Below are positions 22,639 through 40,421 of a stretch of DNA of 64,000 nucleotides, one piece after another (position 1 is the first letter of the stretch; each line of letters starts with the position of its first letter). The notes below the pieces were generated by a model. The model did not search any database. It was not told the DNA's origin and saw only the letters and a list, made by a program, of their open reading frames with translations. Source of the DNA: Escherichia coli (GTDB taxonomy: Bacteria > Pseudomonadota > Gammaproteobacteria > Enterobacterales > Enterobacteriaceae); the NCBI RefSeq assembly GCF_046105845.1, contig NZ_CP151004.1; one strand, written 5' to 3'. The position numbers and the translations under genes were made by a program.

Positions 22639-23230
22639 GAGAGTCAGCCCATTCTGCAAGCTCCTGGCGGCGTGCCACCGGGAGCGCAGCTTCATGAATG
22701 CCGATAATGGCCCCTTCAAGCATAAACAGAATCTTTTCTGTCACCAGACTGTTTTGCTGCCGCAGTCGCAACCAACACATTTTTGCCCCAAGTATACGTA
22801 ACGCCCGTACATCCTTAATCCCCACCTCCCCGAGAATCGCTTCCAGATGAAAAGACATATTGGGCAAATCTTTCAGTCTTTCCCGGGTATTGCGCGTGCT
22901 TTTCTCTTTCAGCGCTGCATCGAGAGAATATTTCGACAGACGCACCAGCTTCAGTTGATTTCGCCATAGACTTTCATCAACCCGATAGTAATTGAGGGTA
23001 ACGGATCGGCCACACTTTTTATATGTCAGCCAAACAGGCGGATGTTTTACACAGTACTGTGCACTTTGCTCACAAGCCCGAAGATACAACTCACCATCAG
23101 AAACCATCGCAAACACCGTGTCGTCAACGGTCAGGCTGTAACTGCCAAACAATGATCGGTATTCAATTGTGCCCAACGTTGCCAGGTATTCTTGTGATTT
23201 ATAGATCCGCTTATAGGAGAGGCTTTTCAT
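22601..23230 (-). CDS. sxy: Competence regulator Sxy/TfoX
   Basis: 209-aa ORF MKSLSYKRIYKSQEYLATLG; recognised as Sxy (TfoX). Confidence 0.95.
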   Translation of the reverse strand: MKSLSYKRIYKSQEYLATLGTIEYRSLFGSYSLTVDDTVFAMVSDGELYLRACEQSAQYCVKHPPVWLTYKKCGRSVTLNYYRVDESLWRNQLKLVRLSKYSLDAALKEKSTRNTRERLKDLPNMSFHLEAILGEVGIKDVRALRILGAKMCWLRLRQQNSLVTEKILFMLEGAIIGIHEAALPVARRQELAEWADSLTPKQEFPAELE

Positions 23231-23406
23231 AAAATTCCTTTTAAAATCATAACATAAAAGAATGATTCACATTAACGGATCCGTTAACTACGAAAATAGG
23301 CAACTTATTCTTAAGGGGCAAGATTAATTTATGTTTTCCCGTCACCAACGACAAAATTTGCGAGGCTCTTTCCGAAAATAGGGTTGATCTTTGTCGTCAC
23401 TGGATG

Positions 23407-23426
23407 TACTGTACATCCATACAGTA
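23407..23426. promoter_or_regulatory. LexA operator (SOS box) of sulA
   Basis: TACTGTACATCCATACAGTA fits CTGT-N8-ACAG consensus, immediately upstream of sulA. Confidence 0.85.
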
Positions 23427-23448
23427 ACTCACGGGGACTGGATTGATT

Positions 23449-23958
23449 ATGTACACTTCAGGCTATGCACATCGTTCTTCGTCGTTCTCATCCGCAGCAA
23501 GTAAAATTGCGCGTGTCTCTACGGAAAACACTACAGCCGGGCTTATCAGTGAAGTTGTCTATCGCGAAGATCAGCCCATGATGACGCAACTTCTACTGTT
23601 GCCATTGTTACAGCAACTCGGTCAGCAATCGCGCTGGCAACTCTGGTTAACACCGCAACAAAAACTGAGTCGGGAATGGGTTCAGGCATCTGGGCTACCC
23701 TTAACGAAAGTGATGCAGATTAGCCAGCTCTCCCCTTGCCACACTGTGGAGTCAATGGTTCGCGCTTTACGCACGGGCAATTACAGTGTGGTGATCGGTT
23801 GGTTGGCAGATGATTTGACTGAAGAAGAGCATGCTGAACTTGTTGATGCGGCAAATGAAGGTAACGCTATGGGGTTTATTATGCGTCCGGTAAGCGCATC
23901 CTCTCACGCAACGAGACAACTTTCCGGGCTAAAAATTCACTCTAATTTGTATCATTAA
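23449..23958 (+). CDS. sulA: SOS cell-division inhibitor SulA
   Basis: ORF trimmed to [19 protein letters not shown] (169 aa). Confidence 0.95.
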
Positions 23959-27897: not shown

Positions 27898-28416
27898 ATG
27901 GTAGATAAACGCGAATCCTATACAAAAGAAGACCTTCTTGCCTCTGGTCGCGGTGAACTGTTTGGCGCTAAAGGCCCGCAATTGCCAGCACCAAACATGC
28001 TGATGATGGACCGTGTGGTCAAAATGACCGAAACGGGTGGTAACTTCGACAAAGGGTATGTTGAAGCAGAACTGGATATCAATCCGGATCTGTGGTTCTT
28101 CGGATGCCACTTCATTGGCGATCCGGTTATGCCGGGATGCCTGGGCCTGGACGCAATGTGGCAGCTGGTAGGGTTCTACCTCGGCTGGCTGGGCGGCGAA
28201 GGTAAAGGCCGCGCGCTGGGCGTTGGCGAAGTGAAATTCACTGGTCAGGTACTGCCGACAGCGAAAAAAGTGACCTACCGTATTCACTTTAAACGCATTG
28301 TTAACCGTCGTCTGATTATGGGCCTGGCGGATGGCGAAGTGCTGGTTGATGGTCGTTTGATCTATACCGCCAGCGACCTGAAAGTCGGTCTGTTCCAGGA
28401 TACGTCTGCCTTCTGA
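27898..28416 (+). CDS. fabA: 3-hydroxydecanoyl-ACP dehydratase/isomerase
   Basis: ORF trimmed to [23 protein letters not shown] (172 aa). Confidence 0.97.
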
Positions 28417-28443
28417 TTATAATCAGACAGAGTATCAAAAGGC

Positions 28444-39710: not shown

Positions 39711-40421
39711 TCAGAGCAGATTTTGCTCCTTCTTTGCACTCAACCCGCCGTAATCATTTATCGTCCGCCAGGAGACATGACACGGTGCTATTGCCTGACA
39801 CCAGCTTGTCTGACGCTGGCTTTTAGGTGGCACAACTCCCGCATTACTTAACGCTTTACCATTTACGCTCACCTGAATCAGGTTAATGTAGTAAGGCGTT
39901 GGGTTAGTGAGTTGTACACCCTGCGAATTCCGTGTCCAGCGTAATTGTTGATAAGCTTCTAGCGGGTCGCCCGGCAAACCTTCGGGTCGCCAGAACAGTT
40001 TAAATACCGAGCGCATCGCCACTTTTACGCTCTGATTTTCAACTTTGCCGGATGGTACGCTGGCAATGCTTAACTCAAATAGCGTTTCGCGATCCACAGG
40101 CAAAATGCCGCTTTCCGTTCTCAGCAAGCGCAACGTGCCTGTAGTACCGGGCTTCAGGAGAATAAGTGGCGGAGCGGCCAGTAATGGTGCTGACCCTGTC
40201 GACGCTTCCCCCCCGGCCCAACGCGTTGGGCGATTGATTTTACTGTTAATAAGCCAGGATTCCTGACTGGTATTAGTCAGTGAAATAGATATCGATTCTC
40301 TGTCTGCCGGGAAGATAAATCGCGTTCCGCCAACCACCACTCCTGCCTGCAATTTCCCCGCCACCAGCAGCGATAAAACGGCAAAAATCGCGAGCGTCAA
40401 TCTGTTCCACGTATTAGTCAT
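39711..40421 (-). CDS. ycbF: Fimbrial periplasmic chaperone-like protein YcbF
   Basis: ORF trimmed to MTNTWNRLTLAIFAVLSLL (236 aa); PapD-like fold; last gene of elf operon. Confidence 0.85.
   Translation of the reverse strand: MTNTWNRLTLAIFAVLSLLVAGKLQAGVVVGGTRFIFPADRESISISLTNTSQESWLINSKINRPTRWAGGEASTGSAPLLAAPPLILLKPGTTGTLRLLRTESGILPVDRETLFELSIASVPSGKVENQSVKVAMRSVFKLFWRPEGLPGDPLEAYQQLRWTRNSQGVQLTNPTPYYINLIQVSVNGKALSNAGVVPPKSQRQTSWCQAIAPCHVSWRTINDYGGLSAKKEQNLL

Follow-up and report, generated by a model that had tools for sequence, protein, structure and literature searches.

What does a perfectly symmetric 16-mer do in the spacer between the divergent genes sxy (tfoX) and sulA of Escherichia coli? 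The described controls of sxy are autoactivation by CRP-Sxy and proteolysis by Lon. The species carries a complete Sxy-inducible DNA-uptake regulon, and the condition that induces sxy in nature is given as not known in PMC3330819. An earlier note on this DNA had placed the 16-mer about 40-55 nt from the sxy start codon in a 218-bp divergent spacer and had left two readings side by side, a site for a dimeric regulator and an RNA stem in the sxy leader. In the following, the position of the element relative to the sxy promoter and its conservation are described, after which these and further readings are weighed.

A dyad on the transcription start of sxy

The window, that is, the whole 64,000-nucleotide stretch that was analyzed, is E. 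coli-type DNA that agrees with the K-12 annotation (yccS, sxy, sulA, and ompA). A sequence check verified TTAACGGATCCGTTAA at 23272-23287 as a perfect 16-bp palindrome, 42-57 nt upstream of the sxy ATG (whose A is 23230) and inside a spacer of 218 bp (23231-23448), which confirms the observation of the note. There is only weak truth in the remark that palindromes of this kind are uncommon: three perfect ones of 16 bp or more occur in the window, when 1.18 are expected from 100 first-order Markov simulations. The 16-bp length by itself is thus unremarkable, and it is conservation, not length, that exceeds chance. The two other 16-bp palindromes are TCTGATTATAATCAGA and GCCCAACGCGTTGGGC (28412-28427 and 40216-40231, respectively), and a 14-mer palindrome, ATCGCGATCGCGAT, lies at 15258-15271.

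TTAACGGATCCGTTAA is present as a single copy in the 64-kb window, even when two mismatches are allowed, and a second full copy of the dyad motif was not found there. Partial copies with at most three mismatches occur at chance rate, as 23 of 100 shuffles give at least three such matches; one of them, TAACGGATCGGCCA, sits with three mismatches in the sxy coding sequence on the opposite strand (22999-23012). In viral contigs the 14-mer gave 75 scattered matches as a raw count. The features of the locus are as follows.

20476-22638, plus strand: yccS (window ORF)
22601-23230, minus strand: sxy (tfoX) coding sequence, 209 amino acids (ORF, annotated orthologues, and Pfam TfoX_N and TfoX_C)
23236-23240, minus strand: sxy Shine-Dalgarno AAGGA (sequence and place before the ATG at 23228-23230)
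23272-23287, unstranded: 16-bp palindrome TTAACGGATCCGTTAA, spanning -2 to +14 of the sxy promoter (sequence and start-site maps)
23273-23286, unstranded: 14-bp dyad core TAnCGGATCCGnTA, -1 to +13 (column identity, mirrored pattern, and metagenome sample)
23285, minus strand: sxy transcription start, +1 = A, leader of 55 nt (three genome-wide start-site maps)
23293-23298, minus strand: -10 hexamer TATTTT, with TGCC before it (spacing from the start and conserved block CCTATTTTC)
23316-23321, minus strand: -35 hexamer TTGCCC, 17-bp spacer to the -10 (block ATCTTGCC, kept in all genera)
23359-23374, unstranded: CRP-S core TGCGA-N6-TTCCG, TGCGA promoter-proximal (half-sites of PMC6728893; conserved in the alignment)
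23449-23958, plus strand: sulA (window ORF)

The transcription start of sxy is observed in three independent maps. The supplement of Kim et al. 2012 lists a start for b0959 at 1020306 (NC_000913.2; 124 reads) with an untranslated region of 55 nt, and the upstream sequence given there ends in ...CGTAGTTA / ...TTGCCTATTTTCGTAGTTA. Cappable-seq reports the same position (score 58.6) together with a weak site at 1020352, and SMRT-Cappable-seq reports 1021082 in version-3 coordinates. The +1 is the third base of the palindrome, namely the first A of TTAACGG on the minus strand. A TTGCCC-N17-TATTTT promoter, conserved across genera, fits this mapped +1; a consensus promoter scanner made no call for the TATTTT -10. 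The CRP-S site is centered at -81.5 relative to the mapped start, which agrees with the class-I-like, AR1-dependent activation of sxy described in Sondberg et al. 2019 (PMC6728893), where the half-sites TGCGA and TTCCG are given with their orientation. In the comparison with mapped start and CRP-S that the earlier note had proposed, +1 lies inside the palindrome and CRP-S is a separate element about 80 bp upstream of the start.

A different start had been published: Sinha and Redfield 2012 (PMC3330819) name a G 115 bp upstream of the ATG, the data not being displayed. This G corresponds to window position 23345, where none of the three maps has a start and from where CRP-S would fall at about -21; for these two reasons, it is not the main sxy start. 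The promoter anatomy is now fixed, with +1 at 23285, a 55-nt leader, and CRP-S at -81.5.

Several other elements of the locus deserve mention in their own right. Just upstream of the Shine-Dalgarno sequence, a block ATGATTT(T)AAAAGG (23227-23250, minus strand) is conserved across genera. In E. coli it opens a seven-codon upstream reading frame (ATG ATT TTA AAA GGA ATT TTA TGA), whose stop overlaps the sxy ATG, and in Salmonella and Citrobacter the same position reads ATG ATT TAA. The block also supplies the 3' strand of a small hairpin, GAAUCAU/AUGAUUU; over 19 sequences this hairpin is 95% paired, with one-sided changes only. Overlapping the right arm of the palindrome, GTTAATGTGAATCATTCTT (23258-23276, minus strand, +10 to +28) agrees by eye with the Fur-box consensus GATAATGATAATCATTATC at 14 of 19 positions; the match drops to about 12 of 19 in Citrobacter, is absent in Lelliottia, and may be due to chance as the region is A+T-rich. 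On the sulA side, Cappable-seq shows several plus-strand starts antisense to sulA-ompA and pointing to sxy (K-12 1019427-1019721, U00096.2), the strongest at 1019427 with a score of 39, and a stationary-phase antisense unit over sulA is mentioned in Conway 2014.

Conservation of the dyad

Of 5426 complete E. coli genomes, 5425 contain the spacer. A segment of 60 nt around the palindrome shows 100% identity in 5060 of 5424 such genomes, and K-12, O157, and others share the identical 16-mer. The spacer of the window at its full length is identical to that of 0 of the 5426 genomes (best 99.1%, most 98.2-98.6%); its differences from four aligned E. coli spacers are located at sxy-sense positions 12, 16, and 54 (1 being the base adjoining sulA), on the sulA side and not in the sxy promoter.

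Conservation outside the strain had been named as a check on the element, and it was found to extend far: the 14-bp core persists in no fewer than 10 enterobacterial genera, whose sxy loci were collected through a protein-anchored scan of species genomes and exact-protein look-ups. TAACGGATCCGTTA occurs as a perfect 14-mer in E. coli, E. albertii, E. fergusonii, Salmonella, Leclercia, and Yokenella, as well as in Enterobacter sp., where the 16-mer is also perfect with C/G ends, and in Trabulsiella, where the 16-mer is the same as in E. coli. One or two arm mismatches are present in Citrobacter, Lelliottia, Intestinirhabdus, Pseudenterobacter, and Superficieibacter. In the Citrobacter freundii group the right arm is degenerate, and in Pseudescherichia, which keeps the left arm and the center, it is lost. 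In the taxa compared, the Sxy protein is only 58-76% identical to that of E. coli and the adjacent leader has diverged.

Across 22 lineages, column identity averages 0.92 over the 14-mer, compared with 0.75 over the 12 nt upstream (including the -10) and 0.65 over the 14 nt downstream, so that conservation falls off at both edges of the dyad. The identity of each half-site position in the 22 lineages is listed below.

Half-site position 1: left arm 0.73, right arm 0.32
Half-site position 2: left arm 0.95, right arm 1.00
Half-site position 3: left arm 1.00, right arm 0.86
Half-site position 4: left arm 0.86, right arm 0.59
Half-site position 5: left arm 1.00, right arm 0.95
Half-site position 6: left arm 1.00, right arm 0.73
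Half-site position 7: left arm 1.00, right arm 0.95
Half-site position 8: left arm 1.00, right arm 0.95

On each arm, positions 1 and 4 belong to the least conserved and positions 2, 3, and 5-8 are high; the left arm is better conserved than the right. The A at position 15 of the palindrome is invariant; it mirrors the T at position 2, which is -1 and hence outside the transcript. An independent sample was obtained by scanning metagenome contigs with AAAGATCAACCTCATTTTC, a block covering the sulA -35 and CRP-S about 80 bp upstream, instead of the palindrome itself. The 43 distinct sxy promoters found in this manner display the same conservation pattern. The commonest element, CTAACGGATCCGTTAG, is perfect and occurs in 10 promoters, followed by a form ending in ...CGCTAG in eight; forms ending in ...CGGTAG and ...CGATAG are also among the 43. 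All four bases occur at position 13 and three at position 4, in no case with compensation, and positions 2, 3, 5-10, 12, 14, and 15 are nearly invariant.

In a more distant clade (proteins beginning MKIISYKRIY), the central CGGATCCG has been lost and TTA-N10-TAA is kept in place. The loci concerned (L118, L154, L164, L179, L186, and L191) form a Klebsiella-like clade in which unrelated sequence replaces CGGATCCG; TTA is kept at the start site, with (T)TAA following 10 nt later, and the ends of the dyad thus outlast its center.

Operator, leader helix, and other readings

We tentatively interpret the palindrome as an operator-like dyad for a dimeric protein, most likely read as duplex DNA, an interpretation that we rate as the leading one yet somewhat short of an even chance. 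It is drawn from four observations: the conservation of the two arms is mirrored, the same positions are free on both arms without compensating each other, the conserved block ends where the dyad ends, and A15 mirrors a T at -1 that is not transcribed, a correspondence that no RNA model explains. Inverted half-sites with symmetric, position-specific conservation are what is expected of an operator, and so is a placement that interferes with RNA polymerase, here with the start at 23285 inside the dyad. A dimeric protein on TAnCGGATCCGnTA (-1 to +13) would overlap RNA polymerase at initiation. As the dyad lies on +1, repression or gating of sxy transcription would be the simplest effect of such a protein, and this gating would act independently of the CRP-Sxy site 80 bp upstream. 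The central GGATCC, which contains a conserved Dam site, may serve a second role in the mRNA, where +4 to +9 can pair with codons 8-10. The dimeric-site option of the earlier note thereby gains mirrored arms, edges that coincide with the dyad, and a -2 to +14 placement; from the observed start site, dyad, and symmetric conservation, we infer binding of a protein as well as repression.

Some observations weigh against an operator. The left arm is better kept than the right, which is partly attributable to the T-1/A+1 context of the start; the right arm is degenerate or lost in the Citrobacter freundii group and Pseudescherichia, respectively, and the distant clade has lost CGGATCCG. Furthermore, the start is strong in ordinary cultures (124 reads; score 58.6), so that any repressor would not fully occupy the dyad under those conditions, which favors post-transcriptional control. 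It speaks for the operator, as background from the literature, that no laboratory condition is known to induce sxy naturally (PMC3330819).

A protein that binds the dyad was not found in the literature, and the 14-mer string was not found in a search of paper texts. To our knowledge, none of the E. coli operator consensus sequences agrees with the dyad. A narrower claim, which we consider rather unlikely, is that a dedicated regulator uses the dyad as its operator and gates sxy at its start site. Candidates for such a regulator would be an orphan dimeric transcription factor, possibly sensitive to GATC methylation, or Sxy itself through its TfoX_C domain. To name YeiL, an orphan from the CRP/FNR family, from the 5-4-5 layout TAACG-N4-CGTTA is pure conjecture; its binding motif was not found in the accessible literature. 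CRP, including CRP-S binding, was rejected for the palindrome because it contains no TGTGA or TGCGA half-site and the true CRP-S lies at 23359-23374. The only extra binder reported for the spacer is the TetR-type protein RcdA (YbjK), for which genomic SELEX recovered the sulA/sxy spacer (PMC3535384). RcdA was also rejected: its box TTGTnnACA differs, and it was footprinted on the sulA side, away from the dyad. According to the same source, that footprint lies near or within sulA beside the LexA box (window 23407-23426 and the sulA side), and sulA mRNA was unchanged in an rcdA mutant. A literature search for ChIP-exo or SELEX at sxy returned nothing relevant.

The main rival to the operator is an RNA-level role for the 5' GGAUCC, which we consider possible but doubtful. 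Here, the 5' end of the mRNA, GGAUCCGUU, would pair with AGCGGAUCU in codons 7-9 and limit translation in the manner of Stem 1 in Haemophilus influenzae, or it would be a site for a GGA-type protein, and the palindrome would be a by-product of the self-complementary GGAUCC core. A 9-bp helix of this kind is predicted between +4 to +12 and +75 to +83 of the mRNA.

23274-23282, minus strand: 5' strand of the predicted helix, GGAUCCGUU, RNA +4 to +12 (E. coli minimum-free-energy and centroid structures)
23203-23211, minus strand: 3' strand of the predicted helix, AGCGGAUCU, codons 7-9, RNA +75 to +83 (E. coli minimum-free-energy and centroid structures)

In the model, the helix would close a domain holding the Shine-Dalgarno sequence and the AUG, for which the predicted unpaired probabilities in E. 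coli are about 0.5 and about 0.8, respectively, with a wide spread among species. The helix is also part of the minimum-free-energy structure of E. fergusonii; its pairing probability reaches about 1.0 in Escherichia, exceeds 0.5 in 15 of 23 species, and stays below 0.2 in 7 of 23. It measures 9 bp in Escherichia, Leclercia, and Enterobacter sp., and most other genera have 6-7 bp or fewer. As in H. influenzae, the early sxy coding region is matched by a complementary 5' end of the mRNA; the H. influenzae leader of 51 nt pairs by its 5' end with coding nucleotides 94-111, which limits translation (PMC2248739). The E. coli sxy mRNA was predicted to fold similarly by Sinha and Redfield (PMC3330819). 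A strongly transcribed gene with a silent competence regulon also points to post-transcriptional control.

The comparative record gives the helix poor support. RNAalifold gave no consensus structure for the leader and early coding region, folding energies are ordinary relative to shuffles (z of -0.6 to +0.4), double changes occur in one cell only, and 7-14 of 19 sequences cannot form pairs 16-86, 17-85, and 18-84; a helix preserved among relatives by compensatory changes is thus not seen. Trabulsiella keeps the perfect 16-mer with a coding partner changed to AGG ATA, and the right-arm TTA with the invariant A15 has no coding partner in Salmonella, Yokenella, and Trabulsiella. As modeled, the helix is Stem-1-like but shows no covariation, and it leaves the conserved arms unexplained.

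Codons 6-10 of sxy bear on this rival as well, as their synonymous sites are strongly constrained. Codon 8, an arginine, is CGG in 14, AGG in 12, CGA in two, and AGA in one of 29 sequences; CGT or CGC is found in 0 of 29, when these make up 50% of the other arginine codons of the same genes. At Ile9, ATC is used in 20 of 23, and at Tyr6 and Tyr10, TAT in 22-23 of 23, whereas later tyrosine codons are mixed. The resulting pattern in window 23201-23215 is TAT-nnn-NGG-ATC-TAT. Judged from these codons, the coding-region GGATCTAT is under selection at the nucleotide level. The codon-8 NGG bias persists, however, in the clade that has lost the leader GGATCC; leader pairing can therefore not be its whole cause and was rejected as the explanation of the bias. 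Other possibilities are a GGA-type motif for an mRNA-binding protein, an effect of rare codons close to the start, and a second DNA site or GATC. In the GGA variant of the RNA-level rival, the conserved 5'-terminal A-C-GGA-U, the Shine-Dalgarno AAGGA, and the NGG-A of codons 8/9 would be candidate CsrA-type sites, whose likeness to the CsrA motif we presume.

It is improbable, though less so than the readings that follow, that the element is intrinsic to the promoter, i.e., that start-site context and initial transcribed sequence are conserved for start-site choice, promoter escape, or sensing of the initiating NTP and that the dyad symmetry is incidental. The best kept bases are indeed those of the left arm and the center (T-1 A+1 A C G G A T, mostly 1.00), they survive the loss of the right arm in Pseudescherichia, and the distant clade retains TTA at the start site. 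A mirrored right arm, an invariant T14-A15, and the sharp drop after position 15 are not predicted by it, and we know of no downstream contacts of RNA polymerase that are sequence-specific in such a way.

Still less probable is control by Dam, in which methylation of the GATC at +6 to +9 would modulate sxy initiation or binding to the dyad and would couple sxy to replication or give epigenetic heterogeneity. This GATC, lying within a promoter element, is kept in 21 of 22 lineages. Two further GATCs are conserved, one upstream in AAAGATCAAC and one at codons 8/9 that is held by synonymous sites, and the leader and coding GATCs have been lost together in the Citrobacter Awk4/NCU1 lineage. On the other hand, the conserved CG and TA flanks are not accounted for by GATC alone, the upstream copy is simply the sulA -35 (TTGATC), and Trabulsiella and some Enterobacter keep the dyad without the coding GATC. 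A literature search on methylomes and unmethylated GATCs gave nothing relevant for the sxy locus.

A 5'-terminal mRNA hairpin formed by the palindrome itself, protecting the transcript or blocking the ribosome, is the least credible of all and already close to refuted. Dyad symmetry and the change of the outermost pair from T/A to C/G in the Enterobacter clade would suit it, but with +1 at the third base, inside the left arm, only 4 bp are left, and the folding energy declines from -3.2 kcal/mol for the full 16-mer to -1.6 kcal/mol for the transcribed part, neither being better than that of shuffled sequences. In RNA ensembles of +1 to +130, the local C3-G10 pair has a probability of at most 0.02 in all 23 species. 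In the alignment, hairpin pair 8-17 fails to form in 11 of 19 distinct sequences and is never compensated, pair 5-20 fails in 10 of 19, and the share of paired cells does not exceed that of shuffles; at arm position 4/13, too, the variation is uncompensated, and the bases of the loop are invariant. The RNA stem of the earlier note does not hold up in the form proposed there: the folding of the 5' untranslated region that it had called for leaves a negligible self-stem and predicts another, long-range helix in E. coli. A stabilizing terminal hairpin of the ompA type was rejected on the same energy and a pairing probability of about 0 in context. No terminator- or attenuator-like site was found in 23150-23520, and an intrinsic terminator or attenuator was rejected since the stem is A/U-rich and no U run follows. 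A known RNA family was likewise rejected, the only match in Rfam 15 being a snoRNA below the gathering score and due to chance.

Known systems and silent competence

The operator-like dyad has its closest counterpart in repressor operators overlapping a transcription start, such as lacO1. The lacO1 operator is centered at +11 and the CRP site of lac lies at -61.5. Both systems have a perfect or near-perfect dyad of 14-16 bp with symmetrically conserved half-sites on +1 to about +14 of a sigma-70-type promoter and a separate CRP-family site upstream in a class-I-like position (-81.5 in sxy, -61.5 in lac). The sxy dyad differs in that it comes without a known cognate protein, its promoter is active in standard cultures, and its right arm is weaker. 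The CRP-S site, which shares the spacer with the palindrome, is the only cis element of the sxy promoter described in the literature found; it is asymmetric (TGCGA-N6-TTCCG) and 80 bp upstream, and the palindrome is unlike a CRP half-site.

Within the sxy family, the leader of H. influenzae (Cameron et al. 2008, PMC2248739) is similar in length (51 versus 55 nt) and in having its extreme 5' end complementary to the early coding sequence, thus enclosing the Shine-Dalgarno sequence and the AUG. Stem 1, however, comprises about 18 bp with a partner around codons 15-20, whereas the predicted E. coli helix comprises 9 bp with codons 7-9 and lacks covariation or a consensus fold. The tfoX 5' untranslated region of Vibrio cholerae also contains an inverted repeat in the leader of a tfoX/sxy gene with a proposed limit on translation. 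The Vibrio stem hides the Shine-Dalgarno sequence and is opened by the sRNA TfoR; the E. coli self-stem is too weak, 40 nt from the Shine-Dalgarno sequence, and cut by the transcription start. Strong inverted repeats upstream of E. coli sxy are mentioned in Sinha and Redfield 2012 (PMC3330819), as a general remark only.

The dyad fits the class of operators placed over a start site with a CRP-family site upstream; it falls under no named regulator and overturns nothing. A 14-bp dyad on the sxy start offers a cheap and concrete handle on the silent competence of E. coli, as a short dyad probe could fish out its binding partner and few point mutations could separate a function at the DNA level from one at the RNA level. 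If it exists, a dedicated regulator would reveal the natural signal for the silent competence regulon in E. coli and its relatives.
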